In this document: positions 4,769-62,162 of the stretch, piece by piece
Layout of the letters: the number at the start of each line of letters is the position of its first letter
Position numbering within the stretch: position 1 is the stretch's first letter
Assembly: GCA_041906765.1 (NCBI GenBank)
Contig: JAYRIP010000001.1
Coordinates: 13,061-77,060, forward strand
DNA: 64,000 nt
Source: Candidatus Saccharimonadales bacterium
GTDB lineage: Bacteria > Patescibacteriota > Saccharimonadia > Saccharimonadales > JAYRRP01
Direction of reading: 5' to 3'
Notes under the pieces: model-generated
The model's database searches: none
What the model was told of the DNA's origin: nothing
Seen by the model: the letters and a program-made list of their open reading frames with translations, nothing else
Position numbers and translations under genes: made by a program

Positions 4769-4804
4769 GAGACACAAAATACGCTTGTGCTACTATTTAG
4801 GCAC

Positions 4805-7369: not shown

Positions 7370-7446
7370 TTGGCATATTTTGGGCAGTGGTTTGGACGTC
7401 TTGATTTGTCAAAAAAATTGACAAAATTTAAGTTTAATCTTTAACA

Positions 7447-8026: not shown

Positions 8027-9499
8027 ATGAATTTTTATGTGACGACCTCTATTCCTTACGTCAATGGTGATCCGCATATTGGGTTTGGCATGGAACTGTT
8101 GCAGGCAGATGTGATAGCCCGGGCGGGTCGCAAGCAAGGCAAGCCGGTTTTATTTAGCACCGGCACCGATGAACACGGCGGTAAGATTGCTGAGCGTGCG
8201 GCAGAACTCAAACTGACCCCCAAAGCGTATACAGACAAAATGAGCCAACAATTCCGCGATCTTACCAAGCTACTAAATATCAGCAACGATCGATTTATTC
8301 GTACCACCGATGCTGGGCATGAGCAACGCGCCCGTATAATCTGGCAAAAATTAAAGGCTGATATTTATAAGGGTAAATACATCGGTTTATATTGCACCGG
8401 TTGCGAGGCTTTTGTCAGCGAGGCGGCAGCCAAAGAACACAAAGGTGTTTGTCCGTATCACAAAAAGCCGTATGAAAAGCTCGAAGAAGAAAATTATTTT
8501 TTCAAACTTAGCAAGTATGCTCCAGAAATAGAAAAACTTATCGCCGGTGATGAGCTTCTAGTAATTCCGCAAACCCGCAAACATGAAATCTTACGGGTTA
8601 TCAAGGATGGATTATCCGACATAAGTATTAGCCGGCCGAAAGAAAAGATTGCATGGGGTATATCGGTGCCAGGTGATACATCGCAGGTAATGTATGTGTG
8701 GTTTGAGGCGCTTATGAACTATATCACCGTGCTTGGCTATCCGGAGCATGCTGATTTTAAGAAGTTTTGGCCAGCTAACGTGCAGGTACTGGGCAAGGAT
8801 ATCTTACGCTTCCATGCAGGGGTATGGCCGGGTATGCTGCTGGCGCTGGGTTTACCATTACCCAAAATCTTGTATGTGCATGGTTTTATCACCGTTGAAG
8901 GCCAGAAAATCAGCAAGAGCCAGGGCAACAATATTCATCCAAAGCAGATTATTGACCAGTATGGGGTAGATGTGTTTCGTTATTATTTTTTGCGGCGCAT
9001 ACCGAGTTATGAAGATGGCGATTTTAGTGCAAAGAGGCTGGATGAAGCCTATAACAATGAGTTAGCCAATGAGCTTGGGAATGCGGTACAACGAACCGCA
9101 GTAATGATTCAGAAATACCAAAATGGAATAATTGGAGAAATTCCGCCTGGCGAGCATGACACCGCGCCGTATTGGAATGCTATCGAACAATGCCGGTTTG
9201 ATCGTGCGCTTGACGAAGTGTGGGAGCAAGTCCGGGGTCTCAATCAATATGTAGACGAGGAGAAACCCTGGTTGTTAGCCAAGAATAAAGACGACGAACA
9301 TTTGCGTGAAGTGCTGGCTTACCAAGCTAGTTGTTTGCTGGAGATTGCTGATTTATTAGAGCCATTTATGCCCGAGACAGCCGCCAAAATTAAGTATGTC
9401 TTTAAGGATGGGGTAGTCCGTCCCCTTAAAGGCACTCTCTTCCCGCGTACCGATGTGTCACCAGCTTATCCTCAGTCTGGTTCTACCGGCGCTCGGTAG
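8027..9499 (+). CDS. metG: Methionyl-tRNA synthetase (short form)
   Basis: PYVNGDPHIGF (HIGH-type motif) and KISKSQGN (KMSKS-type motif); Cys-rich insertion CTGCEAF...CPYH. Confidence 0.9.
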   Translation: MNFYVTTSIPYVNGDPHIGFGMELLQADVIARAGRKQGKPVLFSTGTDEHGGKIAERAAELKLTPKAYTDKMSQQFRDLTKLLNISNDRFIRTTDAGHEQRARIIWQKLKADIYKGKYIGLYCTGCEAFVSEAAAKEHKGVCPYHKKPYEKLEEENYFFKLSKYAPEIEKLIAGDELLVIPQTRKHEILRVIKDGLSDISISRPKEKIAWGISVPGDTSQVMYVWFEALMNYITVLGYPEHADFKKFWPANVQVLGKDILRFHAGVWPGMLLALGLPLPKILYVHGFITVEGQKISKSQGNNIHPKQIIDQYGVDVFRYYFLRRIPSYEDGDFSAKRLDEAYNNELANELGNAVQRTAVMIQKYQNGIIGEIPPGEHDTAPYWNAIEQCRFDRALDEVWEQVRGLNQYVDEEKPWLLAKNKDDEHLREVLAYQASCLLEIADLLEPFMPETAAKIKYVFKDGVVRPLKGTLFPRTDVSPAYPQSGSTGAR

Positions 9500-49492: not shown

Positions 49493-51901
49493 ATGAGTCG
49501 AAAAGAGATCCTAAAAGACTATCCAAAGTTCAACCTATTAGCTTTCTTTATTTCTATCTTTTGTTTTGGGGCTGCCGGCTATATTATTATTGCCAGCAAA
49601 GCGGCCGGGGTTATTCCTCACCCTGATGGTACACTTGTGCGCATTAAAGATGAACCTTCTGATCCCGAAAAAGAGAATATCTATCAAATCAGAGACGGCA
49701 AGCTATTCCTTATTCCTTCTGTAAAAAACAAAGCCAGTAATGGCACCGTATCTTATAACGACCAAATTCTTAATAGTTATGGGTATTCACGGACAAATGC
49801 CAAGGTTGCTACAACTGCTGATATGCAGTTGCCCAAGACTGCAAATGGACAGGTGCTTAAGCTATCATTCCGTGAGGGCGTAGTCCTGTCGGATAACAAC
49901 AATTATTGGATGGTAGATGAGCTTCCTGGCACTCCTAATCCTTCGTATAATATATTGAAGATTAATGACCCGGGACAATACGGCGTATCCTTGGGCTACA
50001 CATTCCTCACCTGGAAGTACGACATTATCCAGATATCTAGCGTTGACTTGCCAAAATATGGGAATGTAACTGGTGCCATTAGCGCCTATGACGTGCATAG
50101 TGACGGAACAGTGATTCGGAGTGGCAACGATTATTACCTTATTAAAGACAGCAAGCGTTATAAAATACCAAATGCACAAGTTGCCCGTAGTTATGGTTAT
50201 GACGTAGCCAACGCATCGACATGGGCAAGGGTAAAGCAGGCTACCGCAAAAGATATGCAACTGCCCGATAAGTCCACAGCTGGCCAGGCTTTGGTACTGG
50301 ATTATCGAGAGGGAGCCTTGCTACGTTGTACGCTAGATTATCAAAATACCGGTGCATCACAGCGTTGCTCACGCGGTAAACTCTATATTGTCGATAACAA
50401 AGGTGGCGCAAACGTCAAGAGAGAGTTTACCGGGTCAGCATTCAGCGGTCTTGGTTATAGTGATGCTGAGCTCATAACTATCGATGGGGGAGCAGCAGCC
50501 AGTGTTCCTGTCACTGACAGTGCAAATCCTGTTGCGCTTGATTCTGGTGGCGTGATTCCTAGCCCCGTCTCGCCTCCAGTCGCAGCAATCTCTTCACCGG
50601 CGAACGGCGCGGCTTATCAAAGCGTGCCGGCAAATGTGAACTTTAGTGCCACTGGTAGCAGTGCCCGTTCCGGCGGTCAGGTAATGTCTTATAGCTGGCA
50701 ATTTGGTGATGGAGCTACTGGCAGTGGCATAACCACAACCCACTCATACACTAAAGCTGGTTCTTATTCCGTGACGCTCATGGTTGTTGATGACAAAGGC
50801 CTTACTGCCTCAGCTAGCGTTACACTAAAGGTGAACAGTTCGCCACCTGTTGCCTCTGATACAGTTGGGACAACTACTAAGTTTACCGGGTGGAACATCT
50901 ACGACTTTATGTCCGACTGGCCGCAAGTTCATGCAGGTATTCGACAGCAGAAGCCCTCGGCCATCCGATGGTTCTTCGATGTTGATCGTTATATACGCGA
51001 TGAAACGACAGGGAAAGTGCGTGATTTTGATGCAAACTTTACTGACAGTAGCTTCCAGGATTTCCTTAAGGCGATAAAAGAATCCAATGCGACCCTCATT
51101 GTTACCGTTTCAAATAAAGGCATTGTATGGCCTGAGGAATATCGAGCTTGTTCTGGTTGTAATTATCCGGACATGCTGAAATTCACCCCCTACATTAAAA
51201 AGGTTGAGGGTTACTTAAAAGCTTCGGGTGTGAATGTGATATGGGAAGCATGGAATGAGCCAGATTTACGCTGGGGTTCATTCCTGAACCGCGCACCAAC
51301 TGCTGGTGCCAATGAGAATTTCTCTGAGGCTTGGTCGCCAATTGGCAATGTTATTAAAGGTGCCGCCAGCTTCACCGGTGGTAACGGCGAATTATGGCGC
51401 CAGATGCACCAAACCACTTCATTCCCTCAATCTTCAGGAGGGATAATCAGTCGTTATACTGCCGAGTGGCCATCGAGTGCGATATTTGTTGATTCGACCA
51501 GTTGGATTCGTGCTACAGCTCCGCATGTGACGTACACTAGCTTCCATCTATACCAGAATAATTATTCCGGTGGCGTCCCCGAGTATGTTAATAAAATCGC
51601 GAGTGATCTAGCCGTGTGGCAACAGATAAAAGGTACCAAAATCAAATTCTATATTGGCGAAATCGGTAAGAATTCCGGGCAGAATTTGGGTGTCAACAAT
51701 ACTGATGCACAGTTCTTGCGGGATGTGCATAATGCGCTTTCCACTGATACGCGCACAAAAGACTACTATATGGGCATGACCGCACATACTTTTTCACCGG
51801 AAGGGAACGGATCACTTGTCGATATGTGGGAACCGCGCAAAGGTTGGTGGCAACCTGATTTTAATGCCACAGATATTCCACCTGAAAGTAATACTCCCTA
51901 A
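49493..51901 (+). CDS. Secreted multidomain protein: duplicated N-terminal domain, PKD domain, C-terminal clan GH-A-like glycoside hydrolase
   Basis: Signal anchor; internal repeat (Y.I.DGK...IP...SYGY...A.DMQLP...GQ.L.L..REG..L); PKD motif YSWQFGDGATGSG...HSYTKAGSYSVTLMVVDDKG; WEAWNEPD catalytic-type motif. Confidence 0.75.
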   Translation: MSRKEILKDYPKFNLLAFFISIFCFGAAGYIIIASKAAGVIPHPDGTLVRIKDEPSDPEKENIYQIRDGKLFLIPSVKNKASNGTVSYNDQILNSYGYSRTNAKVATTADMQLPKTANGQVLKLSFREGVVLSDNNNYWMVDELPGTPNPSYNILKINDPGQYGVSLGYTFLTWKYDIIQISSVDLPKYGNVTGAISAYDVHSDGTVIRSGNDYYLIKDSKRYKIPNAQVARSYGYDVANASTWARVKQATAKDMQLPDKSTAGQALVLDYREGALLRCTLDYQNTGASQRCSRGKLYIVDNKGGANVKREFTGSAFSGLGYSDAELITIDGGAAASVPVTDSANPVALDSGGVIPSPVSPPVAAISSPANGAAYQSVPANVNFSATGSSARSGGQVMSYSWQFGDGATGSGITTTHSYTKAGSYSVTLMVVDDKGLTASASVTLKVNSSPPVASDTVGTTTKFTGWNIYDFMSDWPQVHAGIRQQKPSAIRWFFDVDRYIRDETTGKVRDFDANFTDSSFQDFLKAIKESNATLIVTVSNKGIVWPEEYRACSGCNYPDMLKFTPYIKKVEGYLKASGVNVIWEAWNEPDLRWGSFLNRAPTAGANENFSEAWSPIGNVIKGAASFTGGNGELWRQMHQTTSFPQSSGGIISRYTAEWPSSAIFVDSTSWIRATAPHVTYTSFHLYQNNYSGGVPEYVNKIASDLAVWQQIKGTKIKFYIGEIGKNSGQNLGVNNTDAQFLRDVHNALSTDTRTKDYYMGMTAHTFSPEGNGSLVDMWEPRKGWWQPDFNATDIPPESNTP

Positions 51902-51953
51902 GACCAACACTTGAGTTTTGCAGCCGATACGCTTACCATTATGAAAGTCATTT

Positions 51954-52040
51954 GCCGCAGTGGTGAAATTGGTATACACGCTAGTTTCAGGGACTAGTGG
52001 GAGCAATCCCGTGGAGGTTCGAGTCCTCTCTGCGGCACCA
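51954..52040 (+). tRNA. tRNA-Leu (anticodon CAG), CCA encoded
   Basis: Acceptor strands GCCGCAG/CTGCGGC pair. The anticodon loop is TTCAGGG. It has a long variable arm and the T-arm GGAGGTTCGAGTCCTCT. Confidence 0.9.
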
Positions 52041-52224
52041 TATTGGGTTCAGTGCCTAGTTGGAGTGCGGGTTGGTAACTATAAGTGAGACTCGAACCGA
52101 TAGGCGTACATTGCTTGGGGCAATGTACGGAATCCTTGCTTGGCTGAGCGAGCATTTGCGCGCGGGCAACGCGCACAAATGTTGCCGAGCGAACATGAGG
52201 AGTCGAGTCCTCTCTGCGGCACCA
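52019..52224 (+). repeat. 22-nt direct repeat of the tRNA-Leu(CAG) 3' end (TCGAGTCCTCTCTGCGGCACCA at 52019-52040 and 52203-52224) bracketing a 162-nt structured spacer
   Basis: The copies are exact. The spacer holds hairpins gcgtacattgc/gcaatgtacg (52104-52129) and catttgcgcgc/cgcgcacaaatg (52153-52181). It also holds an inverted 10-nt copy of the T-arm (gactcgaacc, 52089-52098). Confidence 0.85.
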
Positions 52225-52301
52225 GGCATAGATAGTATGTATACAAATAACGAGATTGCTACGAGAGCTTAAATACGCTATTATTCGTCGGTGATCAGTA
52301 T

Positions 52302-52378
52302 GGGTGGCTAGCTCAGTTGGCTAGAGCACCTCGTTTACACCGAGGGGGTCGGGGGTTCGAATCCCTCGCCACCCACCA
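52302..52378 (+). tRNA. tRNA-Val (anticodon TAC), CCA encoded
   Basis: Acceptor strands GGGTGGC/GCCACCC pair. The anticodon loop is TTTACAC and the T-arm is GGGGGTTCGAATCCCTC. Confidence 0.9.
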
Positions 52379-52564
52379 TACAGCTTTTGTTAAGAATTGT
52401 TTGTGGCGAAGGAAGCCAACTGCTTGGCTTTCGTGGGATGAAAACAGTCGGAGCCCTGTGTGAGTTTTGGCCTAAGGGCCAAAGGCGAACACGGTGAGAC
52501 GGGCTCGCGAGACTTTACCGTCAGGTAAAGTACTTGTGAGTCGAATCCCTCGCCACCCACCATA
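52357..52564 (+). repeat. 24-nt direct repeat of the tRNA-Val 3' end (TCGAATCCCTCGCCACCCACCATA at 52357-52380 and 52541-52564) bracketing a 162-nt structured spacer
   Basis: The copies are exact. The spacer has GTGAG (52460-52464) followed by a 7-bp hairpin tttggcc taag ggccaaa (52466-52483) and then gcgaac. A second hairpin ctttacc gtca ggtaaag lies at 52513-52530. Confidence 0.85.
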
Positions 52565-52566
52565 AG

Positions 52567-52592
52567 CACCCCTAAATGCAAGGGGTGTTTTT
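52567..52592 (+). terminator. Rho-independent terminator following the second copy of the tRNA-Val 3' end
   Basis: cacccct aaatgca aggggtg followed by TTTTT. Confidence 0.7.
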
Positions 52593-52702
52593 GTTGGCAA
52601 AGCAAGCCGGCTGTCTGGACGTACTTTAAGCAATTGTTAAAAAGCTCACTGCTTATAGGGTACTGCCCGAGTTATGCTGAAGGGCAGCAAGGAGAGAAAC
52701 CA

Positions 52703-53074
52703 ATGGCTAATTCCCATTTACGGCAAGCAGCAGCAGATGTATGGAGAGCTGTGGAAGATGCCGGCCGGGAAGCACGCGAGTTACAGGTATTAATTGATGA
52801 AACAAGGCGTGCCAGGGAACAACAAACGCGAAGCTTACGGCGCCAGCGCTCATTACTGCTTTCCACGGCTGCCCAGCAAAGTACCGTAACGGAAGAACGG
52901 TTTGCGCTTGAACGTCAGGCGCAGGATCTCGAAAATCGGGCAATCCAGACTGAGCAAGATATGAATCGCAAGGTCAATCAGCTCATCCAGGCTGTGCACC
53001 ATAAGGAGTTGATGCGCAATAACCTCGAATCACAAGCTCGTAATTTGGAACGCCAAGCTGCCCAGTGGGGTTAG
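52703..53074 (+). CDS. Hypothetical coiled-coil protein
   Basis: The start is set at ATG 52703, preceded by AAGGAGAG. It is about 123 aa, rich in Q/R/E heptads (RELQVLIDETRRAREQQTRSLRRQ...). Confidence 0.55.
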   Translation: MANSHLRQAAADVWRAVEDAGREARELQVLIDETRRAREQQTRSLRRQRSLLLSTAAQQSTVTEERFALERQAQDLENRAIQTEQDMNRKVNQLIQAVHHKELMRNNLESQARNLERQAAQWG

Positions 53075-53149
53075 CAGGGTCCAAGTTGAATGTTTACCTC
53101 TTATCAGTTATGATAAATGTGCTTTTTGCCAGTTTAAATGGCGCTTTAG

Positions 53150-53225
53150 CTCAGTTGGTAGAGCAGAGGCCTGAAGAGCCTTGTGTCCCCAGTTCGAGTC
53201 TGGGAGGCGCCACCATAAAACTTTT
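53150..53225 (+). tRNA. tRNA-Phe (anticodon GAA), CCA encoded
   Basis: Acceptor strands GGCGCTT/AGGCGCC pair. The anticodon loop is CTGAAGA and the T-arm is CCCAGTTCGAGTCTGGG. Confidence 0.9.
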
Positions 53226-53393
53226 GTAACCTTTTTCCTGGTGAGAAAAGTTTCATTATGTCTCTACAGACGAAGAACTGGATCTTTTGCGTAGCAAAAG
53301 CAGTTTGACGCCAGCGAAGTCACGCACAGGAATATATTCCGAGCATGACGAAGTGCGCGAAGGCGTAGCCGAAGGTCTGGGAGGCGCCACCAT
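53208..53393 (+). repeat. 19-nt direct repeat of the tRNA-Phe 3' end (GTCTGGGAGGCGCCACCAT at 53208-53226 and 53375-53393) bracketing a 149-nt structured spacer
   Basis: The copies are exact. The spacer holds hairpins cttttgc gta gcaaaag (53294-53310), the palindrome ggaatatattcc, and tgcgc gaag gcgta near the 3' end. Confidence 0.85.
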
Positions 53394-53405
53394 GGCAAGA
53401 TTACA

Positions 53406-53436
53406 AACAAAAAGAGGGAATCAAGCCCTCTTTTTG
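53406..53436 (+). terminator. Rho-independent terminator following the second copy of the tRNA-Phe 3' end
   Basis: aaaaagaggg aatcaa gccctcttttt. Confidence 0.7.
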
Positions 53437-53450
53437 TTTAAATAAACGTT

Positions 53451-54872
53451 ATGCATGAGAACAACAGACCTAGAATCACAGGCGTAGAAACAGAGTTCGG
53501 TTTCGTATATGAGCTGCAACAAGGCAACGGCTGCTATGATTTCGCCTATAGCCCCCACGCCGACACTATATTATCCGATAACTTACCCGCGGGTATTCAC
53601 CGTACCAACAAGCGTGGGATGCTTAGTAACGGTGCCCGGGTATATATAGATATTGGCGCCCACCCAGAATTTTCTACGGCCGAAGCCGCCACTTTCAAGG
53701 ACGTCATAGCGCAAGACCTGGCAGGCGAACGCATTATTTTTCAATCTTTTCAACGGATGGCAGAAAGAGGCATGCTGAAAAGCTTTCAGCTAAACAAAAG
53801 GGTGGCGGACATGTGTGGCACTTACTGGGGCAGGCATGAGAACTATCTAGTACCACGCACGCTGGACACAAATACCGAAATCGTGCCTCAGGTTGCCTTA
53901 CATTTGGCTACTAGGTCAATATGGGCTGGAGCCGGAATGCTTCGTCCCGACAGCGAATACGTGATGGCACAAAAGATAAATGCTATTCGCACCCTGTGCA
54001 GCTATTCCGCTAGCAGGGAAGGCTTGCGCCCGTTGGTGGATATAGGTCGTGATGAGCCGCATGCCGATAAATCATTGTGGCGCCGTCTTCATGTGGCTTC
54101 GGCAGACTCTAATATGTTCCCGTGGACTTCTTGGATGTCTCTCGGCACAACATCAATCGTCTTAAGAATGGTGGAACAGGGGGATGACTTAAGTGACCTA
54201 CACTTGTACAATCCGGTTCAAGCAGCACATAAGACAATACGTGATCTTGACCTGAATGCCAGCTTGTCGCTAAAAAATTCCACAAAACCAATGACAGCTT
54301 TAGACATACAGGAAGCTTTAGCGGAACGGGCGTGTGTAATGTCACAAAACGGTTGTCTTCCACCTGAAGAGCAGCAGATAGCTGCTGAATGGATGAAATT
54401 GTGCCAGGATTTAAGGCGGGATTCCGAACAATGCGCTGAACGAGTAGAGTGGATTGCAAAATATATGTTTCTTGGCAAAGTCGCCGCCAAAAAGAATATA
54501 GCCTTTCATAGCGAGCCCCTAAGGAAGTTAGATATAGCTTGGGACAACCTAGATACAGACAAAGGCATAGCTCAAAAAATCCGCGCCAAACGAAGTTTGC
54601 CCGAGATAGTAAGCGAAGAAGAAGTGCAGGCAGCCATGATAGAGCCTCCGCACACGAGGGCCCATACAAGAGGACGGCTTATAAAAAACTTTGCTAGCCT
54701 ACAGAATCTAGAATCCCCTCCGATTAGTGAACATATTATTGATTGGCATGAATTTGCGATTAAACACTCTAAGGGTGGCAATACTGGAATCTATCAAGTT
54801 GTTCTTAATGATCCTTACGAAACCGAATCTGCCGAAGCAGATGAGATGCTGTATCTGATGTCTAAATTTTAA
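53451..54872 (+). CDS. Pup-ligase/deamidase family protein (PafA/Dop-like)
   Basis: RITGVETEFG, NGARVYIDIGAHPEFSTAE and GRHENYLV match the conserved PafA/Dop N-terminal and active-site motifs. 473 aa. Confidence 0.75.
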   Translation: MHENNRPRITGVETEFGFVYELQQGNGCYDFAYSPHADTILSDNLPAGIHRTNKRGMLSNGARVYIDIGAHPEFSTAEAATFKDVIAQDLAGERIIFQSFQRMAERGMLKSFQLNKRVADMCGTYWGRHENYLVPRTLDTNTEIVPQVALHLATRSIWAGAGMLRPDSEYVMAQKINAIRTLCSYSASREGLRPLVDIGRDEPHADKSLWRRLHVASADSNMFPWTSWMSLGTTSIVLRMVEQGDDLSDLHLYNPVQAAHKTIRDLDLNASLSLKNSTKPMTALDIQEALAERACVMSQNGCLPPEEQQIAAEWMKLCQDLRRDSEQCAERVEWIAKYMFLGKVAAKKNIAFHSEPLRKLDIAWDNLDTDKGIAQKIRAKRSLPEIVSEEEVQAAMIEPPHTRAHTRGRLIKNFASLQNLESPPISEHIIDWHEFAIKHSKGGNTGIYQVVLNDPYETESAEADEMLYLMSKF

Positions 54873-55076
54873 CTGGTTGCACAGATAACGTTCACTCATT
54901 ATAATCTTACCCTGTTAATAGCTATTAGGATTAGGGTAGAAATTTTAATTGTTTAAAGTTTTTATCCCCCGATTAAAGAGAGGATTCTTTAATCGGAAGA
55001 GGAGCAGGCAACAAACGTATCTGCAAAACCAAAAGTTCCGCCTTGGTTTCGCAAGCAAGTTGTTAAACTGCGACGT

Positions 55077-55153
55077 GCGGGTGTAGCTCAGTTGTTTAGA
55101 GCGCTTCCTTGCCAAGGAAGAGGCCAGGGGTTAGAGTCCCCTCACCCGCACCA
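55077..55153 (+). tRNA. tRNA-Gly (anticodon GCC), CCA encoded
   Basis: Acceptor strands GCGGGTG/CACCCGC pair. The anticodon loop is TTGCCAA. The T-loop TTAGAGT is unusual. Confidence 0.9.
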
Positions 55154-55341
55154 AGTAAAGAGTCGGTCGAAAGACCGGCTTTTTACTTGGTCTGAGGCGG
55201 CTCTTACGCCTGGTCGAGAAGAGGCCAGGGTGAGAAGTGCCAGTGGCACTTCGCAAGGGAACCTTCCGATGAAAACTTGTTTTCAATGGTGAAGTTCCGG
55301 GCCCGCGGAAGGCGGGGAGAGTCCCCTCACCCGCACCAAGT
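55133..55341 (+). repeat. 24-nt direct repeat of the tRNA-Gly 3' end (AGAGTCCCCTCACCCGCACCAAGT at 55133-55156 and 55318-55341) bracketing a 164-nt structured spacer
   Basis: The copies are exact. The spacer starts with a terminator-like hairpin (55154-55190). It also contains a 13-nt copy of the tRNA variable/T-stem segment gaagaggccaggg (55218-55230), then GGGTGAG and hairpin aagtgcc agt ggcactt (55235-55251), followed by tgaaaa cttg ttttca and cccgc ggaag gcggg. Confidence 0.85.
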
Positions 55342-55713
55342 TGACACCAATGACTGTTCCCTATCAAGGGAGCTTTTATTTTTCTTGATTGAGCTGTCGG
55401 TTTCAACCTTAGCCAGTTCTGACTTCATTTTTGGTAAGTTGTCCTTGATTGGGATGACCCATGGATTAGGCTCTATGCTTACCGTTTTATTTGTAAGGAC
55501 TGGGTTACAGCCTATGGCTAACAGAATCTCTCTCCTCATACCGAAGTTACCCGCTTTAAAATTCTCACTAGCATTACATAGTCGTTCAAGAGTCATGCCG
55601 ATGATCTCGTACCAGTTTTTGACCCTTTCTGCGGTATCTTTCTGCTCTTTTTGGCGCAGGGCAAGCTCGGTCTCTATGACAATGCGAAGTGGCAAGAATT
55701 GAGCAATAGGCAC
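55327..55713 (-). pseudogene. Possible C-terminal remnant of a large serine recombinase
   Basis: 128-aa GTG-start ORF with a stop two codons upstream. GNFGMRREILLAIGCNPVLTNKTVSIEPNPW resembles, from memory, the tail motif (..K.EIL.ALGSN..L.DKKL.) of large serine recombinases. No catalytic N-domain is present. Confidence 0.35.
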
Positions 55714-55797
55714 TATGACTTACGCAAAATCTGGCACGCAGTCCTCTACCTAACGGGAAAGATGGCCATGGCGCAGAAAAAGGCTTCCAAACGATAA
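55684..55797 (+). mobile_element. Degraded N-terminal fragment of an IS5-type (DUF4096-like) transposase
   Basis: The frame reads ...KWQELSNRHYDLRKIWHAVLYLTGK.... D-L-R-x-I-x-x-A-V-L-Y-L-x-TG matches the conserved DLR..lnAIlYvlrTG motif. The frame breaks right after it and there is no start codon. Confidence 0.4.
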
Positions 55798-55845
55798 CTG
55801 CTCGTGAATGATTAATCACTAGATATCTAATTTGTAGTATACCTA

Positions 55846-55874
55846 TTGACAATGTAGTACTTGTCTGCTAACAT
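55846..55874 (+). promoter_or_regulatory. Sigma-70-like promoter TTGACA-N17-TAACAT for the GHKL operon, predicting a leaderless or near-leaderless first gene
   Basis: Consensus -35 at 55846-55851 and -10 at 55869-55874. The ATG at 55885 lies only about 4 nt beyond the expected transcription start. Confidence 0.5.
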
Positions 55875-55884
55875 ACGTACTACC

Positions 55885-56103
55885 ATGACAAATGAGAGTA
55901 AAAACGAAAAATTCAAGCGGTTAGCCAAGCAGCGCGGCGATCGTGTATTGAAGGACATCGAGTTACTCGGTAATCTGGGCAACCGGAATAATTATGATTA
56001 TTCCGAATCAGATGTCAGAAAGCTGTTTTCGACTCTAGAGGAGGAGTTACGAATAGCTAAGACGAGGTTTAAGCAAAATAAAAAGCGCGAAATAAGATTC
56101 TAG
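55885..56103 (+). CDS. Small basic helical protein (72 aa), first gene of the GHKL operon
   Basis: MTNESKNEKFKRLAKQRGDRVLKDIELLGNLGNRNNYDYSESDVRKLF.... The TTG at 55861 proposed by the ORF track lies inside the promoter. Confidence 0.5.
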   Translation: MTNESKNEKFKRLAKQRGDRVLKDIELLGNLGNRNNYDYSESDVRKLFSTLEEELRIAKTRFKQNKKREIRF

Positions 56104-56138
56104 GGTATGGTAATTACATAATTTAGGGGGACCAATAA

Positions 56139-58151
56139 ATGGCCACATTCACACAACCCATCAACCGAGCGGCAGACCTTAAAGCAATATTGGATGGTTA
56201 CGAACAAGCAATTAAAAAAGATAGTTGGTTGTCCGAAGCTTTTCAAAAGGATGGAATACAGAACGCATGGGGAGCACGTACCTCTTCGAGGGGCAATGGT
56301 TGGGAGGTTAAACTCCTCTATTACAGCGACCCCTCGACTTCTAGGACCTTCGCAATAATTGAAGACGCAGGAACCTACGGTTTAACAGGTAACGTGCCAG
56401 AGAACGTAGAGGAAGAAATACGCTTGCTTGAATCTGAAGATGAAAGGCAGCGTTTGGGACGGTTTCTGAGTTCGAACTGGAGCTTAAAAACGGAAAACTC
56501 TTTGGGCTCGCGAGGCCGCGGTAAGATGATTTTTGTTGGAGCTTCAACAACCAATGAAATGTATTTTGAAACAGTCAAGAGCGATGACAACTATTACGTA
56601 TTCGGCAGAACTTATTTGGATAAGGATAAGACCATGAAGGTCGAAGTTCAAAAAGGCAGGCAGGCACACGAAATGCGTGAGCGAGTATTTGGTCATAGAT
56701 TTCCTGCCGTACGCCATGTAGGTACGAGAATCATCGTACCGGAACCAGAACAAGAGCTAGCTGATGCGCTTAGAACGGGTAGCATTGCAGAAAGCATCCA
56801 GTTGACATGGTGGGAGATTATAAATAAGTACCAGGCAAAGATTTATGTCGGGGAGCTCAGTAACGCGAAGCTAGTAGAGGCTTCGCCCTGGCTTCCAACT
56901 GAGGTGTCTGGCATAAATAAACAAAAAAGCTATACGAATATAGCAATAGAGCCAGGCTCTATTTTAAAAATCAAGAGGATCGGCCTCGCATACCTTCAAG
57001 ACAAAGAGGTTCCGATTAATTACCAGGGTATAGCGATACAGCGTGGGGGCATGAACATCCAAGTGATGCCGACAACTAAGTTGTTGCGCGAAGTACCAGA
57101 GGGCAAAATTTTTGGCTCAGTTGAGTTCGACAGATCGCTCGACGATGCGATGTTAGAGCTTGAGCATGCCGAGCACTATGACTTTAAGTGGCACAAGGGT
57201 GTCGCTTATAAAGTTAACCGAGAGCTTAAAAAAATCGTAAATGATTTTGCCCGGGAATTTAAAATCCTAAATGATGAACGAGAGGCCTCCTCAAAAGACA
57301 GAAAAGAGGCTGCATCCGCTGTTCAACGAGAGTTGAATGATATTGCCAAATCATTGGGGCTAAAAGGTTTAGGATTTGGGACAAAGACCAAGGGATTGCC
57401 GCGTCCGGCTCCTGTTGAGCCAGAACAGATTACAATTTCGATACCTGAGTTTAAGACGCCTAATACCAATGGACAGGTAAGTGCGGGACAGTACCTTACG
57501 GGAACCTACGCACTTGCCAGTAGCGAGTATGCAGAGCAATTAAAGGTCAGCTCCCAAATTTGGATCTATAGAGAAGGGGGCTTTAACCTTCCTGGCTTAG
57601 TCGAATCGCGAGAAGGAGTTGTAGGTAGCGGAATTGCAGCATTAAGAGTAGGTTGGGACGACTTACACATAGACGATCGCTTTGAAAAGGGTCACTACTT
57701 TCTTAAGGCAAAATTGATTGCGCTTGAGGACCGAACGATGGATGACGGTAAGGAAATCGAAAAAGGTGACATTCTATACCGAGAAGTTTCAAGACCATTT
57801 TGGGTTGATGAAGAGCCGCCAGCAAAGGGTTTCTTTAAAGACATCGTAGCTCTCTCCAAAGGCCGAGAAAACTATGTCTGGTGGGAATACGAAGACGGCT
57901 ATGTGCTTTGCTATAACAAAGAACACCCACGCATTAAAGAGATAATCGATGATGACGAAGCATATAAGGATTTGCTTCGCAAGGAAGGTACTCTTATCCT
58001 TTGGGCCATCGTTTTAAACAATGTCATTGCTAACCCCGAAGAGATGGACAAGAAGATACTGAAATTAACGGATGGTGTAGAAGAGCAATCTTTGGAAAGC
58101 CAGGTGGGCTGGCTGCTCAGCCGTCGCAGTGAAGTGCTATGGGGTAAATGA
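56139..58151 (+). CDS. GHKL-superfamily (MORC/MutL/Hsp90-like) ATPase-domain protein, 670 aa
   Basis: N-box-like EAFQKDGIQNAWGA, G1-like IIEDAGTYGLTG and G2-like GSRGRGKMIF. A strong RBS AGGGGGA precedes the ATG. The C-terminal approx 400 aa have no recognisable domain. Confidence 0.65.
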   Translation: MATFTQPINRAADLKAILDGYEQAIKKDSWLSEAFQKDGIQNAWGARTSSRGNGWEVKLLYYSDPSTSRTFAIIEDAGTYGLTGNVPENVEEEIRLLESEDERQRLGRFLSSNWSLKTENSLGSRGRGKMIFVGASTTNEMYFETVKSDDNYYVFGRTYLDKDKTMKVEVQKGRQAHEMRERVFGHRFPAVRHVGTRIIVPEPEQELADALRTGSIAESIQLTWWEIINKYQAKIYVGELSNAKLVEASPWLPTEVSGINKQKSYTNIAIEPGSILKIKRIGLAYLQDKEVPINYQGIAIQRGGMNIQVMPTTKLLREVPEGKIFGSVEFDRSLDDAMLELEHAEHYDFKWHKGVAYKVNRELKKIVNDFAREFKILNDEREASSKDRKEAASAVQRELNDIAKSLGLKGLGFGTKTKGLPRPAPVEPEQITISIPEFKTPNTNGQVSAGQYLTGTYALASSEYAEQLKVSSQIWIYREGGFNLPGLVESREGVVGSGIAALRVGWDDLHIDDRFEKGHYFLKAKLIALEDRTMDDGKEIEKGDILYREVSRPFWVDEEPPAKGFFKDIVALSKGRENYVWWEYEDGYVLCYNKEHPRIKEIIDDDEAYKDLLRKEGTLILWAIVLNNVIANPEEMDKKILKLTDGVEEQSLESQVGWLLSRRSEVLWGK

Positions 58152-58795
58152 TGGCTATAGTCTTACGCCGAGGCGGTGAAAAACAGTATAAAAGCGGTAC
58201 CGGCAGGGTAACCAGTGAGGATAGTCTAAAAGCAGACCAACTGGATAATGAGCTTAGTATAAAAATCAAGGCATATGAACAGGATGCTCTGAAAAGAGGT
58301 CTTATACTCCCCAATGGCACAAAAAAAGACGCATTACGGATTTGGTATGATATCGGAAAGTTGCTGTATGACATAGCCGATAAATATGGTGTATTGGGCA
58401 CATCCGATGAGCTTTACTATTGGCAGTCAATTTACGACCACGTTTCGCCTTTAATTCAAAAACTCGGGCCTCCTCAAAGTACATCGAACACTAGGAATCA
58501 CTTTAGATTGTGCGCTTACATGGCTAGTAAGGGCGATTGGGACTTTGTTAGCAGTGTGGGTAACTGGTCCGTATGGCGAGACTTATTAGATAATAGTAGA
58601 ATCCAAGAAGATCCACGGGTATTTGATTGGGTAGTTAATGCAATACATACGTCAGGCCTTGGGCATAAGGAAGTCAGACCGTTCGTACACGAAGTCCGGC
58701 GAAGTATAAAAAACAAAGACACTACGGTATTAACCGACAAAGAGTTGGTAGCTAAGCTGCAACCATTACTGGGTTTGATTCCTTCGAAATCTTAA
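58148..58795 (+). CDS. Hypothetical 215-aa protein, translationally coupled (ATGA) to the GHKL ATPase
   Basis: There is a 4-nt start/stop overlap with the upstream gene. I could not identify any nuclease motif. Confidence 0.6.
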   Translation: MMAIVLRRGGEKQYKSGTGRVTSEDSLKADQLDNELSIKIKAYEQDALKRGLILPNGTKKDALRIWYDIGKLLYDIADKYGVLGTSDELYYWQSIYDHVSPLIQKLGPPQSTSNTRNHFRLCAYMASKGDWDFVSSVGNWSVWRDLLDNSRIQEDPRVFDWVVNAIHTSGLGHKEVRPFVHEVRRSIKNKDTTVLTDKELVAKLQPLLGLIPSKS

Positions 58796-59798
58796 CCAAA
58801 TGGGTATTCATTTCAAGGGCCAGAAGCGTTTCTTTTACGCTTTCTGCCACAGCTTGAGCAACAGGCACAGATACGGCGTTGCCTAATTGCTTATAGGCTT
58901 GTGTAACAGGGATATCAAATGAGTAGTCATCGGGGAATCCTTGAAGTCGTGCGCTTTCTCTGGTTGTAATCTTCCTAACCCCTCGAGAATTTAATGGTGA
59001 GCCGGTTCGGTTTACGGCATCCCTTGGCTTAGGAACATCTTGGATTAGATTTCGCTCCCTTCCCATATTGCCAACTACAAGCGCGGTAGATATGCCCTCT
59101 GGATCTAGAATGCGATATCCGAAGCCATGGCCTTTGGCAGCATGCCTTTGCTTGTGTTTTTCGAGTCCGTCCATGTATGTTTGCGAAAGATAGTAGTAAT
59201 CGTGCACCTCTTCCTTTTCAAGAATGTCCTTAACGCGAAGTTTAAGTTCAACAGGCTCTGGAAACTTAAATTCTGCAGAATGGTCCTTGAAGCCCACTAT
59301 GTAAATTCGCTTCCTATCTTGAGGAAGCCCATAATCCTTTGTGTTTAGAACTTGGGTATATACCTTATACTCTAGCTCGTTTTCAAGCTTATCCATGATG
59401 ATCTTAAACGTATTGCCCCCATCATGTTTAACGAGGTTTTTTACATTCTCAAGTACAAATGCTTTTGGACGCTTAGCCTTTAGTATTTCGAGCACATTAA
59501 AAAAGAGCGTTCCCCTTGCGTCATAGAAACCGTGTAGCTTACCGATTTTAGAAAATGGCTGGCAGGGGAAGCCCCCCGTAATTATGTCGGCGTAGGGTAT
59601 GTCGTTTGGCTCGACTTTAGTAATGTCTTGTAAATCTAATGCGCCTTCGCCAAAATAGCCGTCGAAGGAGACCTTGCACCACTTATCAAAATCATTTGAA
59701 TATATAGTTCTAAAACCAGCCCTCTCAAATCCGAGCCTAAAACCGCCGATTCCAGCAAACAGATCTACTAAGGTATATTTGTTATCGGATGTTGTCAT
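58752..59798 (-). CDS. dcm: DNA (cytosine-5)-methyltransferase
   Basis: Motif I DLFAGIGGF, motif IV GGFPCQPFS, motif VI ENVKNL, and motif X QLGNAVSVPV. Confidence 0.9.
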   Translation of the reverse strand: MTTSDNKYTLVDLFAGIGGFRLGFERAGFRTIYSNDFDKWCKVSFDGYFGEGALDLQDITKVEPNDIPYADIITGGFPCQPFSKIGKLHGFYDARGTLFFNVLEILKAKRPKAFVLENVKNLVKHDGGNTFKIIMDKLENELEYKVYTQVLNTKDYGLPQDRKRIYIVGFKDHSAEFKFPEPVELKLRVKDILEKEEVHDYYYLSQTYMDGLEKHKQRHAAKGHGFGYRILDPEGISTALVVGNMGRERNLIQDVPKPRDAVNRTGSPLNSRGVRKITTRESARLQGFPDDYSFDIPVTQAYKQLGNAVSVPVAQAVAESVKETLLALEMNTHLVKISKESNPVMVAA

Positions 59799-59842
59799 AA
59801 TGTTTAATTATAGCCGGAAACGTAATAATTGGCATCAAGGTT

Positions 59843-60259
59843 ATGGATAAATTTGATTCGAAAAAAAGAAGCGAGATAATGTCGCGCATAAAATCCAAGG
59901 ACTCTGTAGCGGAGAAAATCGTTTTCAGAGAACTTAGGCGTAAAAATATTTATTTTCAAAAGCATTATAAAAATGCTCCCGGAAAGCCAGACATTGCACT
60001 GCCCAGAAAAAGGCGTGCAGTATTTATAGATGGCGACTTTTGGCATGGTAGAGATTTTATTCAACTTTCAGAACAGCGTAAATTAAGTGTCTTCTGGATT
60101 AAAAAGTTAACTGGCAATATAGACAGAGACAAACGTCAGCTTGAAGAGCTGGCTCAACTCAACTGGAGGGTGCTTAGAGTTTGGGAAAGTGACATAAAGA
60201 GAATACGGACTAGATCAGCAGAAATTGAAAAGATTGTCTCGTTTCTAGTCGCAGACTAA
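59843..60259 (+). CDS. vsr: Very-short-patch repair endonuclease Vsr
   Basis: KKRSEIMSRIKSKDSVAEK...GKPDIALPRKRRAVFIDGDFWHG is typical of Vsr. It is divergent from dcm. Confidence 0.9.
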   Translation: MDKFDSKKRSEIMSRIKSKDSVAEKIVFRELRRKNIYFQKHYKNAPGKPDIALPRKRRAVFIDGDFWHGRDFIQLSEQRKLSVFWIKKLTGNIDRDKRQLEELAQLNWRVLRVWESDIKRIRTRSAEIEKIVSFLVAD

Positions 60260-60411
60260 ACGGTCCGTAGCTCATCAGCAAAGTTACACTTTCACGAATA
60301 GTGCTGCACCAGGGATTTTGCGAATCATTACATATGTAAAACACCGAAAAAACCGGTATTTTGCTTTAACTCAAAAGAGACTTAAACTAACTCTTTTGTT
60401 ATCCTAGGCTT

Positions 60412-60855
60412 ATGAAAGATGAAGATGTCGCAAAAGTTGGCGTGGGAGTATTCGTAGTAAAAAACAATAAAGTATTACTCGGAAAGAGAAAGAATGCTCA
60501 CGGTGAGAATGAATATGGTGGACCTGGTGGACATTTGGAGTACGGCGAAACCGCAGAGGAAACTGCTCTAAGAGAAATTGCCGAAGAGTGCGGGATAAAA
60601 GTAAGGCATTTGAAGATGCTTTGCGTGTCCGATTTGCTGACATATTTCCCGAAGCATTATGTTGATATTGGATTTACAGCTGAATGGGAAGATGGCGAAC
60701 CAAAAGTTCTTGAGCCACATAAATTAGAGTCGTGGGATTGGTACGATCTAGATAAATTACCGGATAACCTATTCGGGTGCGTCAGTGCTTACGCAGAGTC
60801 ATACAAGACCGGCAAAAAGTATTTTACATTTCCAAGTAAATTAGCTATGAAGTAA
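60412..60855 (+). CDS. Nudix hydrolase (intact Nudix box)
   Basis: GGHLEYGETAEETALREIAEECGI fits Gx5Ex7REx2EExG. Confidence 0.8.
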   Translation: MKDEDVAKVGVGVFVVKNNKVLLGKRKNAHGENEYGGPGGHLEYGETAEETALREIAEECGIKVRHLKMLCVSDLLTYFPKHYVDIGFTAEWEDGEPKVLEPHKLESWDWYDLDKLPDNLFGCVSAYAESYKTGKKYFTFPSKLAMK

Positions 60856-61027
60856 ATCTGGCGATAGATCAAATTATTTTATGATATTTCCCAATTTATA
60901 GTTATCAATCTTACTAGATGAAGTTAGGAATACGTTGGCTATCTGGTACCAATACGACCCACCCGATTTTGAAACAGCATGGTTTTAATTAGAGCTTCGA
61001 TGAGGCCCTTTTTGCTACCATTAGATA

Positions 61028-61663
61028 ATGAGCGAACTGACACCTGAAGAGAAATTGACCATTGCAACATATGATCGTCAGGCTGAAAACTGGTCGTCAA
61101 GTCACGCTACTACCAATTTTTGGGGCGAAGAAATGAAACGCTTTGAAGAACTACTTCCAAGCGGTCGGATACTAGAAATTGGTGCTGGTGGCGGTCGTGA
61201 TGCAAAGGAGCTTATTGAGGCTGGTTACGACTATCTCGGAACAGATATTTCGGTGGGATTGTTAGAGCAGGCACGTAAGAATAATCCTGGCGTTAGCTTT
61301 GAAAAGGTGAGCGTGTATGACCTGGACTACGAAGAGTTATTTGATGGCTTTTGGTGCTCGGCCGTACTACTGCATATACCAAGAGACAGGATTGATGATG
61401 CTCTGCAAGCTGTCAATAAAAACATGAAGCGAGGTGCTATTGGTTTCATCGCTATTAAACAGGGCGAAGGCGAAAAGTTGGAAGCAGATGATAAAAGCCC
61501 TCAGGGTGACGAACGATTTTTTGTGTATTGGACTAATGATAGCTTTTCAAAGAGACTTAGGGATAATGATTTTGAAATTGTAGAGCATGGCTATCGCCCG
61601 ATGAGCGAGCGAACTAAATGGTTAACCTACATTGTAAAAGTAGGTGATGCAAAACTAAGTTAG
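61028..61663 (+). CDS. Class I SAM-dependent methyltransferase
   Basis: Motif I ILEIGAGGGRD, followed by an acidic loop GTDIS. Confidence 0.8.
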   Translation: MSELTPEEKLTIATYDRQAENWSSSHATTNFWGEEMKRFEELLPSGRILEIGAGGGRDAKELIEAGYDYLGTDISVGLLEQARKNNPGVSFEKVSVYDLDYEELFDGFWCSAVLLHIPRDRIDDALQAVNKNMKRGAIGFIAIKQGEGEKLEADDKSPQGDERFFVYWTNDSFSKRLRDNDFEIVEHGYRPMSERTKWLTYIVKVGDAKLS

Positions 61664-61726
61664 CTCGCTAGACAAATTGAATAACTTCACGAGATTCTGT
61701 AACCTGGCATCGCTACAGTGTTAATT

Positions 61727-61764
61727 AAAAACAGCACCGTTTTTGAAGTGACGGTGCTGTTTGT
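61727..61764. terminator. Bidirectional hairpin terminator between convergent genes
   Basis: A perfect 10-bp stem acagcaccgt / acggtgctgt, flanked by AAAA and TT(G)T. Confidence 0.7.
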
Positions 61765-61777
61765 GAACTGGAAAGTG

Positions 61778-61966
61778 TTACTTCCAGCCGAAAGCCTGGC
61801 TCAGGATCCAGAGCGTTACTGCAATGGAAATGAAGAACAGGCCCAAACCAACTGGACTACCCCAGCTGAACCACGAACCCCACGAGCGCCAGTGCTTCAA
61901 ATGGTCCTGGTAGCTCCAGTCGTAGTCCTTTTTAAGGTCCTCGGGACTTTTGCTTTGGTGTGGCAT
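61778..61966 (-). CDS. Small Trp-rich membrane protein (62 aa)
   Basis: The start is set at ATG 61966, with AAGAGGA 5 nt upstream. The sequence is MPHQSKSPEDLKKDYDWSYQDHLKHWRSWGSWFSWGSPVGLGLFFISIAVTLWIL. Confidence 0.5.
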   Translation of the reverse strand: MPHQSKSPEDLKKDYDWSYQDHLKHWRSWGSWFSWGSPVGLGLFFISIAVTLWILSQAFGWK

Positions 61967-62162
61967 ATACGTCCTCTTGTTAATTGATGAAAGGCACGAG
62001 CGCCGATAGGGTTCGACGATGCCCATAGAGTCGGCGCAGGCCTACTCATTCATCTTTCAGTGGTACTGGTGTCCGCCCATGTTGTTCGCCGAATGAGCAG
62101 CGCATGGTTGTAGGGGACGACCACATCGCAAGTATTTAATCATGAAATAACAGATACGACAA

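Follow-up and report, generated by a model that had tools for sequence, protein, structure and literature searches.

A gene-less module with a conserved structured element and a second tRNA 3' end behind tRNA-Gly(GCC) in Saccharibacteria, and its counterparts at other tRNA genes

The stretch of DNA analyzed here (the window, 64 kb in length) contains a single tRNA-Gly gene, as judged by both ARAGORN and Rfam. This intact tRNA-Gly(GCC) is at 55077-55153 (Rfam tRNA, 72.6 bits) and, like the other features of the locus, lies on the + strand. It is followed by a terminator-like hairpin (55150-55191, inverted repeat I9), as a sequence-only reading of the locus had noted. The stem of this hairpin begins in the ACCA end of the tRNA, its 19-nt arms (55150-55168 and 55173-55191) are 89% complementary in an inverted-repeat scan, and it is part of the minimum-energy fold. 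Next comes an antisense arm (55193-55213), an imperfect reverse complement of the tRNA T-arm. The match is 17 of 21 positions, which none of 2000 shuffles equaled, and in the predicted fold the antisense arm pairs with the two tRNA-derived segments that follow it, a 13-mer and a tail.

The 13-mer, GAAGAGGCCAGGG, forms a left arm at 55218-55230 that is a sense copy of the end of the anticodon stem, the variable loop and the 5' strand of the T-stem. It has two exact sites in the 64-kb window, 55117-55129 (within the tRNA) and 55218-55230. The chance expectation at one mismatch or fewer is 0.09, and two matches occurred in 0 of 100 shuffles. The sequence-only reading had recognized this 13-nt copy in the spacer and had placed it correctly, but its position for the site in the tRNA (55115-55127) was 2 nt off. 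The left arm is joined to an 88-nt element that starts with GTGAG (55230-55317), which we call type A. It scores 100.2 bits with a covariance model (R1, described below) and its base pairs are supported by covariation. The first G of type A (55230) also belongs to the left arm. The insert had been described as structured and about 87 nt long; the structure is borne out and the length is 88 nt.

The tail (55318-55341) repeats the tRNA from A56 in the T-loop to CCA and the 3 nt beyond. It is one half of a 24-nt exact direct repeat (D3), AGAGTCCCCTCACCCGCACCAAGT, whose other half is at 55133-55156 in the tRNA. The 20-nt core of AGAGTCCCCTCACCCGCACCAAGT matches only these two sites in the window at three or fewer mismatches, with an expectation of 0.01. 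The whole 188-nt stretch behind tRNA-Gly has a predicted folding energy of -91.6 kcal/mol, with z = -5.8 on the + strand compared with z = -3.7 on the - strand, both relative to shuffles.

The right-hand part of this stretch is a 3' fragment of tRNA-Gly with a foreign insert in its T-loop, as previously proposed, and the insert occupies the place of T-loop nucleotides 54-56 (T54-C56). This second Gly copy keeps only the 13 and 24 nt and lacks the acceptor 5' strand, the D arm and the anticodon arm. A complete cloverleaf, and thus a functional tRNA-Gly, is found by ARAGORN and Rfam only at 55077-55153. As is typical of integrative elements that target tRNA genes, the insert is bounded by a direct repeat of the 3' part of the tRNA, here 24 nt and exact, with the intact tRNA at one end. 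The 185-bp module is gene-less and has no recombinase gene. The locus had also been taken for the left edge of a downstream island. That idea fails in the sense of an att site pair: the repeats enclose only about 160 bp and there is no third copy of the tail in the window, so the Gly module is not the att-pair edge of an island.

Type A is present in multiple copies in the genome to which the window belongs (G000; 857,676 bases in 9 contigs, 98.8% complete by a computed estimate, 41 tRNA genes). A motif search found eight copies with a mean column identity of 63%, three stems, and compensatory changes in 17 of 31 pairs. The predicted fold consists of a P1 hairpin, a long P2/P3 stem and a P4 hairpin, and conserved unpaired nucleotides are present. 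Covariance model R1, built on those eight copies, finds 11 copies in G000 at E <= 1e-8. In a larger alignment of 113 copies from 100 sources, which was fitted to the model and therefore favors paired and covariation values, 97.1% of cells are paired (75.3% in column shuffles), 27 of the 31 base pairs have compensatory changes, and compensatory cells number 666, compared with 165.5 in shuffles and 38-93 in slid controls. None of 500 shuffles reached the observed values. One pair is G-U in 78 of the 113 copies and G-C in 20. On the opposite strand the G-U pair would be an A-C mismatch, which assigns the fold to the tRNA-sense strand, whether in the form of RNA or of single-stranded DNA. Judged from the aligned sequences, with support for the pairs that goes beyond the controls, it is well supported that type A represents a structured RNA or ssDNA motif and a family of its own.

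Type A does not resemble structures that have already been cataloged. It has no match in Rfam 15 at gathering scores, and neither a group I intron nor any other intron, ribozyme or RNA family in that collection matches it. A cmscan of 51900-55450 at E <= 10 returned tRNA matches and six scattered weak matches to other families. The only one of these families that touches type A is DUF3800-XI, with 15.5 bits against a gathering score of 37.8. We also considered and rejected a MITE: no inverted-repeat pair joins the ends of 55230-55317, and the flanking repeat is 24 nt of tRNA.

Type A copies group neither by tRNA nor by genome. The nearest neighbor of a copy has the same anticodon in 4 of 85 cases (3.9% expected by chance) and comes from the same genome in none, and divergence among the copies inside one genome is about that between genomes. 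Such diversity inside a genome exceeds what a recent burst would leave. Together with this lack of clustering and the strong structural constraint on the sense strand, it marks type A as an old, functional part either of the elements or of the host. Its role could be in the architecture of a recombination site, in the processing or insulation of read-through transcripts, or in self-cleavage. We infer that it is a single-stranded structure (RNA or ssDNA) for recognition or processing that the element requires.

Modules with the same general plan are found at many other tRNA genes of G000. Behind nine of its 41 tRNA genes, 18-22 nt from the 3' end of the gene itself recur exactly, in a copy whose end is 175-212 nt downstream. 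When a tail copy is defined as at least 14 of 18 matching positions, 11 of 39 testable tRNA genes have one, compared with 36 of 1555 cross-tRNA controls. Altogether, modules are present at no fewer than 15 of the 41 tRNA genes and at the tmRNA gene. Downstream modules with type A follow Gly-GCC, Met-CAT, Arg-GCG, Pro-GGG, Arg-TCG, Arg-TCT and the tmRNA gene; the tails or bodies of some modules are degenerate (Pro-GGG and Arg-TCT). Upstream copies of type A are at Arg-CCT, Glu-TTC and Tyr, each inside a partial copy of the 5' part of that tRNA that precedes the intact gene. The module of the tmRNA gene (586-977), also within the window, has the same architecture (1051-1156, + strand; R1 46 bits, E 2e-9): a type A variant (1051-1137) and then an 18-nt copy (1139-1156) of the tmRNA 3' end (960-977).

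The slot between a tRNA gene and its tail copy can also be filled by other bodies. Those in the window, found in the repeat scan and all on the + strand, follow tRNA-Leu(CAG) (52041-52226, type B body, 22-nt tail copy), tRNA-Val(TAC) (52379-52564, type C body, 24-nt tail copy) and tRNA-Phe(GAA) (53216-53393, single-copy body, 19-nt tail copy). The type B body is 78% identical to the module behind tRNA-Val(GAC) on contig C8, and the type C body also occurs behind Ser-GCT in G000. A Gln-type body is another filler of the slot, with further partial copies near other tRNA genes in the same genome.

Type A is widespread in the order. It is found in 35 of 61 genomes (0.5-1.3 Mb each), with 0 to 18 matches per genome, and the matches are often at contig ends. 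A degenerate type A pattern matches at least 118 stretches in a collection of species-representative genomes, and 69 of the 80 pattern matches listed carry Saccharibacteria or Saccharimonad names. This places the organism of the window among the Saccharibacteria (TM7). The pattern has no match in the viral contigs of IMG/VR, a similarity search with the module gave no match in phage records and none in plasmid records, and a search for related loci with the Pup-ligase protein as query found no relative. The insert in the partial tRNA-Gly copy is a conserved, multi-copy structured element that recurs at many tRNA genes and at a tmRNA gene across the order, which goes beyond what the sequence-only reading had noted.

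The modules of relatives are built to a common plan. Relatives' loci and G000 together gave 148 matches to type A, or 146 after two duplicate loci were dropped. An intact tRNA gene is within 400 nt upstream of type A in 77 matches and downstream in 49. Requiring 12 nt or more of tail match and a gap below 130 nt left 43 downstream modules. In these, 64-96 nt separate the tRNA from type A, and type A has a length of 86-88 nt in 36. In 38 the tail has its start 21-22 nt short of the tRNA 3' end, and in 31 it extends as far as that end. The left arm is specific to its tRNA: it is identical to its own tRNA at 10 or more of 13 positions in 31 of the 43 modules, compared with 14 of 215 cross-tRNA controls. 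The 13-nt match first seen at Gly is thus reproduced elsewhere. Retention of upstream tRNA sequence, which had been put forward as a check on the other modules, holds for most type A modules of relatives (these 31 of 43) but not for the Leu, Val and Phe modules of the window, in which no adjoining sense left arm is apparent by eye. The antisense arm is clear at Gly and modest over the 43 modules. Its mean duplex energy is -14.2 with its own tail and -12.4 with other tails, and its own tail is in the best 10% of duplexes in 11 of 43.

Upstream modules have a fixed order as well: the 5' part of the tRNA from position 1, type A, 7-12 nt of the tRNA sequence that follows, a short antisense piece that turns back, a TATAAT-like box, and the intact tRNA gene. 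Of 34 rows, 31 have a similarity that ends at position +1 of the tRNA, with runs of at most 8 nt; the other three rows are self or tandem matches. Type A is mostly in the T-loop, and it also occurs in the D-loop (17|20), at the junction of the D and anticodon arms (22-25|28), in the anticodon loop (37|40) and in the variable loop (46|49). In every copy examined by its tRNA flanks, type A has the orientation of the tRNA fragment. The junctions are not those of clean insertions, with 1-4 tRNA nucleotides missing at the site. One pseudo-tRNA-Pro (L071) carries two copies of type A, and three loci (L015, L064 and L065) are tandem arrays. In G019 (locus L191), type A is the only interruption of a full-length tRNA-Lys that lies 3.6 kb from an intact copy.

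The tRNA-Lys of G019, and the orientation-specific placement of type A in tRNA loops (D, position 26, anticodon, variable and T), which recalls the sites of non-canonical archaeal tRNA introns, might suggest that type A is an intron, self-splicing or spliced by proteins, of an expressed second copy of tRNA-Gly. We find this scarcely credible. The Gly copy lacks the 5' two-thirds of the tRNA apart from the 13 nt that remain, the T-loop would still lack 1-4 nt if type A were removed, and type A matches neither the group I intron nor any other Rfam family.

Comparison with a second genome of the same genus (G001), which is syntenic with G000 over the region of the modules, shows gain or loss of modules and replacement of tRNA parts. 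Only one of the five modules compared, that of Val-TAC, is common to the two genomes; those of Gly, Leu, Phe and Tyr are absent from G001. The tRNA-Gly of G001 has no module and is followed by a different terminator and then by unrelated genes. An allele without the module thus exists at Gly, but the sequences downstream of Gly in the two genomes are unrelated and cannot be aligned, so an exact empty site cannot be drawn there. At Phe the empty site is exact. The sequence immediately after tRNA-Phe in G001 is the ortholog of the sequence after the tail copy in G000. Thus, G000 has exactly one extra module, 177 bp bounded by a 19-nt repeat, and the native flank follows the tail, not the tRNA. 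There is no module at Leu-CAG in G001. At Val-TAC, both genomes have the type C module; the tail in G001 matches the different acceptor stem of its own tRNA, and the antisense arm differs between the genomes by one compensating change.

The Tyr locus provides a case of the opposite polarity. The tRNA-Tyr gene of G001 is intact, and its 5' part is identical to the copy that is interrupted by type A in G000. The intact tRNA-Tyr gene of G000 differs by compensatory changes in the D stem, the anticodon stem and the variable arm. It follows from this comparison that the native gene was interrupted and is now made whole by a 5' part of foreign origin, which comes with its own promoter-like box. A further 7.5 kb of nucleotide-metabolism genes is present at this locus in G000 only. 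Together, the 177-bp indel at Phe and the interrupted native copy at Tyr back, in both polarities, the earlier suggestion that an element brings a replacement end for the tRNA.

The same observations bear on the main rival, in which the module is a cis-acting RNA encoded by the host and transcribed together with the tRNA. Alternative pairings would form among the antisense arm, the tRNA 3' end and the tail, and control of 3' maturation of the tRNA, termination or stability would fall to type A as a sensing or protein-binding domain. Such an RNA would account for the RNA-type covariation of type A, with its G-U pairs on the tRNA-sense strand, for an orientation that is always that of the tRNA fragment, and for the stereotyped total length. 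It would also fit the tails that are kept identical to the tRNA in 31 of 43 modules and the tail at Val(TAC), which follows its own acceptor stem in both G000 and G001, with the compensating change in the antisense arm. Moreover, copies of type A within a genome are as divergent as those between genomes (63% mean column identity), unlike the products of a recent transposon burst. However, a host regulator is hard to reconcile with the presence of only one of five compared modules in both of two genomes of a genus, and 26 of the 61 genomes of the order have no match to type A at all. The positions of type A are also unexpected for a regulator: it occurs at five positions of truncated tRNA copies, sometimes twice per copy (L071), in tandem arrays (L015, L065 and L064), and in a native tRNA-Tyr that was interrupted and replaced. 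At Gly, a terminator-like hairpin lies between the tRNA and the module. We therefore regard a host regulatory RNA as doubtful, weakened above all by the turnover within the genus and by the truncated, multiply interrupted pseudo-tRNAs.

G000 has four genes for large serine recombinases (LSRs) and one gene of the Phage_integrase family (tyrosine recombinase), all outside the Gly module. It also has one weak match to a Y1 transposase, no TnpB or IS110 transposase gene, and a single reverse transcriptase (RT) gene in a locus on contig C2 that resembles diversity-generating retroelements. For two of the LSR genes, the end of the gene falls within the 3' 41-42 nt of a tRNA gene (Glu-TTC and Asn-GTT) encoded on the other strand. 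Of 21 LSR loci examined, 15 show such an overlap between the LSR gene and the 3' part of a tRNA gene, and the LSR proteins group by target tRNA. The island at tRNA-Asn extends for 8.5 kb to an 18/20 copy of the tail, which is preceded by a structured non-coding stretch with an antisense piece. The end of the Asn island has a short motif in common with the body of the Gln-type module and no BLAST match to it; given that the likeness is limited to this motif, we do not count it as evidence of homology.

One locus connects type A directly to an LSR. Contig G006:C16 starts inside a tRNA-Pro and continues with a 4122-bp unit that is present twice at 100% identity. The two copies are separated by a 21-nt repeat that runs from the T-loop to CCA. 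Each unit begins with the LSR gene, whose stop codon borders the repeat on one side, while type A adjoins it on the other. The unit closes with a degenerate tRNA end, followed in turn by a hairpin, an antisense piece, a left arm and type A. This is the one candidate found for a full-length element with type A at its end. The unit could be such an element, with type A at its far end, or it could be an LSR element joined to a (possibly older) mini-module, the two duplicating together. Beyond 16 other LSR genes, no second tail of tRNA-Pro, Glu, Leu or Phe was found within the flanking DNA examined. A copy of type A 7.4 kb from the LSR of G011 was set aside, as it belongs to another tRNA (Arg).

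The distribution of recombinases does not identify a general partner for type A. LSRs are found in 26 of the 35 genomes with type A and in 18 of the 26 without it, so that over the 61 genomes their presence does not track that of type A. G057 has 18 matches to type A and no match to an LSR or an RT. Reverse transcription as the engine has no support either: RT is found in 11 of the 61 genomes, unrelated to the counts of type A. Y1 transposases are found in 19 of the 61 genomes, 14 of which have type A; 21 genomes with type A lack Y1, and the link is weak. The presence of type A at sites in the D-loop, at position 26, in the anticodon loop and in the variable loop cannot be explained by one recombinase specific for the T-loop. 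Candidates for the mobilizing activity are a tRNA-specific LSR acting in trans and homologous recombination by the host after uptake of DNA. Saccharibacteria have been reported to be naturally competent.

The LSR islands at tRNA genes in these genomes raise another alternative, that the Gly module is the decayed remnant of a large island. An integrase of the island would have placed it at tRNA-Gly, and subsequent deletion of its genes would have left only the attL and attR ends, with type A as a presently inactive leftover of the end of the island. The 8.5-kb island at tRNA-Asn, which ends in an 18/20 tail copy after a structured stretch with an antisense piece, resembles such a precursor, as does the LSR unit of G006 with type A at its end, and the degenerate tails and bodies at Pro-GGG and Arg-TCT would be expected of decay. 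Nevertheless, we consider this origin quite unlikely. Random deletion would not give a gap of 64-96 nt and a total length of about 180 nt in 43 modules that come from many genomes and tRNAs, the indel at Phe is exactly one module, and type A is still under structural constraint. There are also no intermediate sizes among the loci examined, except for G019, with 3.4 kb of cargo without a recombinase.

Based on these comparisons, we favor, with moderate confidence, the view that the approximately 188 bp behind tRNA-Gly(GCC) are a miniature, gene-less integrative module that carries a replacement tRNA end and thereby keeps its tRNA-shaped targets functional. We infer that the Gly module arose by the following recombination history. 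A small element, carrying type A at one end and a tRNA 3' end of its own at the opposite one, would recombine with the tRNA gene inside the segment from the T-loop to CCA. The last 21 or so nt of the intact tRNA would then be the replacement brought by the element, and the gene would stay whole because the 3' end of the element is now the one that is used. The native 3' end would be displaced behind type A, where it forms the tail. Subsequent recombination between the 18-24-nt repeats could delete a module cleanly or generate tandem arrays, which would explain both the clean loss at the Phe site of G001 and the arrays at L015, L064 and L065.

A bolder reading is conceivable, although we think it unlikely. 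Type A might be a new class of functional single-stranded structure, either a self-processing RNA or a folded-strand recombination site, and the active core of gene-less elements of about 185 nt that parasitize tRNA and tmRNA genes across the Saccharibacteria. Their points of entry would be exposed loops of tRNA-shaped nucleic acid, and they would always bring the piece of tRNA that is needed to keep the gene alive. Such an element would be a minimal integrative replicator without a gene of its own.

Saccharibacteria are ultra-small episymbionts with genomes of roughly 0.8 Mb. The finding that at least one third of the tRNA genes of G000, as well as its tmRNA gene, have a gene-less module of about 180 bp points to an unrecognized layer of genome dynamics in these streamlined genomes. 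Because the modules break assemblies and create partial tRNA calls, type A provides a handle for annotation. It also opens a route to studying how recombinases that target tRNA genes, or the recombination of the host, act in the candidate phyla radiation. Should the modules prove mobilizable, they would rank with the smallest integrative elements known and might serve for inserting DNA site-specifically into these bacteria, which are hard to manipulate.

A full-text search of the literature (main texts without supplements) found no description of such modules or of the type A motif, and the passages checked in one candidate paper (PMC8040213) mention neither Saccharibacteria nor TM7. Several known systems share some of their properties. 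Integron attC sites and the attP of phage CTX are recombination sites that fold as single strands and whose structure is conserved above their sequence. Type A is similar in that its structure is more conserved than its sequence and in that strand-specific pairs (G-T or G-U) lie by a recombination junction. In contrast to attC, there is no integron integrase here; G000 has one gene of the Phage_integrase family. That type A recombines on a folded strand would be pure hypothesis.

Non-canonical tRNA introns of archaea have a bulge-helix-bulge structure and are found at D, anticodon, variable and T positions. Type A is similar in its placement at several positions in tRNA loops, always in the orientation of the tRNA, and sometimes twice per tRNA. 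It differs in that its hosts are truncated pseudo-tRNAs beside an intact gene, in bacteria, and in that its removal would not restore a tRNA.

MITEs, Correia elements, RPEs and REPINs are short, gene-less, multi-copy and structured, are patchily distributed among relatives, and break assemblies. The modules described here are also short and gene-less, and many copies of type A are at contig ends. However, type A lacks the terminal inverted repeats of MITEs, and its flanks carry a repeat of 18-24 nt of the target tRNA in place of a short fixed duplication. Unlike the copies of small bacterial repeats, the copies of type A in one genome are not similar to each other.

The cis-mobilizable elements known as CIMEs lack a recombinase, are bounded by attL and attR, and are related to the autonomous elements ICESt1 and ICESt3 of Streptococcus thermophilus. 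Tandem accretion allows the two to move together. The unit of G006, an LSR element with an end like a mini-module that is duplicated as 4122 bp, resembles such an accretion. CIMEs are kilobases long and carry genes, and we know of none with a structured RNA-like core or with multiple copies over many tRNA genes.

The closest relatives in kind are the integrative elements that target tRNA and tmRNA genes, including genomic islands, prophages and tycheposons. The tycheposons of Prochlorococcus insert into a tRNA gene, restore it with a copy borne by the element, and leave part of the tRNA behind as a direct repeat at the distal end (10.1101/2020.12.28.424599). Islands pile up beside the tRNA together with degenerate remnants and partial tRNAs, and the integrases cluster by target tRNA (10.1101/2020.12.28.424599). 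Here too, LSR proteins group by target tRNA. The modules differ from such elements in several respects. They are about 185 bp long and gene-less, the Gly module having no integrase of its own, and they are at a minimum of 15 of the 41 tRNA genes of one 0.86-Mb genome. They are built around an 88-nt structured element inside a partial tRNA copy, and one form of them restores the 5' part of the tRNA and brings its own promoter-like box. Integrative elements that target tRNA genes are already known as a kind; what is new here is a gene-less variant with a structured motif.

tmRNA genes, like tRNA genes, are targets of the modules, the gene-less units of about 185 bp that end in a copy of the target's 3' end. 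Within window 586-1156, the DNA behind the tmRNA gene (586-977) holds, in order, a hairpin, a piece resembling the T-arm in antisense, a divergent version (1051-1137) of the conserved structured element called type A and, as a tail, 18 nt that copy the 3' end of the tmRNA (1139-1156). The type A element and the 18-nt copy behind this gene therefore extend the range of targets beyond tRNA genes.

Type A also interrupts tRNA copies. In locus L191 from G019, another genome of the order (contig C2), a full-length tRNA-Lys(TTT) at 8131-8291 of the locus has type A in its T-loop as its sole interruption, so that tRNA positions 1-53 are followed by type A and then by positions 57-77. An intact tRNA-Lys with its own mini-module stands 3.6 kb upstream of this copy; the DNA separating the two contains genes for a histidine kinase and a GNAT protein and none for a recombinase. 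In locus L071 (about 110-400), a single pseudo-tRNA-Pro(TGG) upstream of an intact tRNA-Pro gene contains two type A copies, at 25|28 and 55|57.

Modules with a different body may form an additional family. A stretch of about 55 nt at the core of the Gln-type body is found again in the genome that holds the window (G000), beside tRNA-Ser(CGA), Ser(TGA) and Glu(CTC) and, in two further places, at a contig end (C5:129940-129998, C5:122855-122907, C4:99593-99645, C5:102-128 and C6:14-40). This recurrence at other tRNA genes and at contig ends suggests such a family, with degenerate tails.

DNA downstream of two tRNA genes, Gly and Tyr, differs between G000 and G001, a genome of the same genus. 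Downstream of the Gly module, window 55342-64000 is wholly different from its G001 counterpart; GC drops to 0.40-0.45, and the region holds a type II cytosine methyltransferase gene on the minus strand (58752-59798), one for a Vsr endonuclease (59843-60259), NUDIX and methyltransferase genes and several ORFs without a family. After tRNA-Tyr, G000 exceeds G001 by about 7.5 kb (L168, C3:138200-146600); this extra DNA lacks a recombinase gene and codes for NUDIX, Ham1, nucleoside deoxyribosyltransferase, NADAR, HIT and MazG-like proteins. Separately, a Pup-ligase family protein (53451-54872; Pfam E 1e-92) is encoded between the tRNA-Phe and tRNA-Gly modules of this Saccharibacterium; an exact-word search of a species-representative genome collection found no close relative.

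Large serine recombinase genes end within the 3' 41-42 nt of an opposite-strand tRNA gene, tRNA-Glu(TTC) in L164 (483-2253) and tRNA-Asn(GTT) in L165 (1401-3008). Of 21 loci from relatives, 15 show this overlap, and the recombinases sort into groups according to the tRNA they target. An 8.5-kb island in G000 (C4 58935-67507) is bounded by tRNA-Asn and a copy of its 3' end matching at 18 of 20 positions, preceded by about 160 nt of structured, non-coding DNA that includes part of the tRNA end in antisense orientation.

The 8-kb contig C2 of G000 (L031) carries two Fic genes, a TraG/VirD4-like gene and a pair of 133-nt repeats with 78% identity (4722-4854 and 6106-6238), one of them at the 3' end of a gene for 867 amino acids. 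Together with the contig's reverse transcriptase gene (6729-7862), the repeat pair looks like a diversity-generating retroelement.
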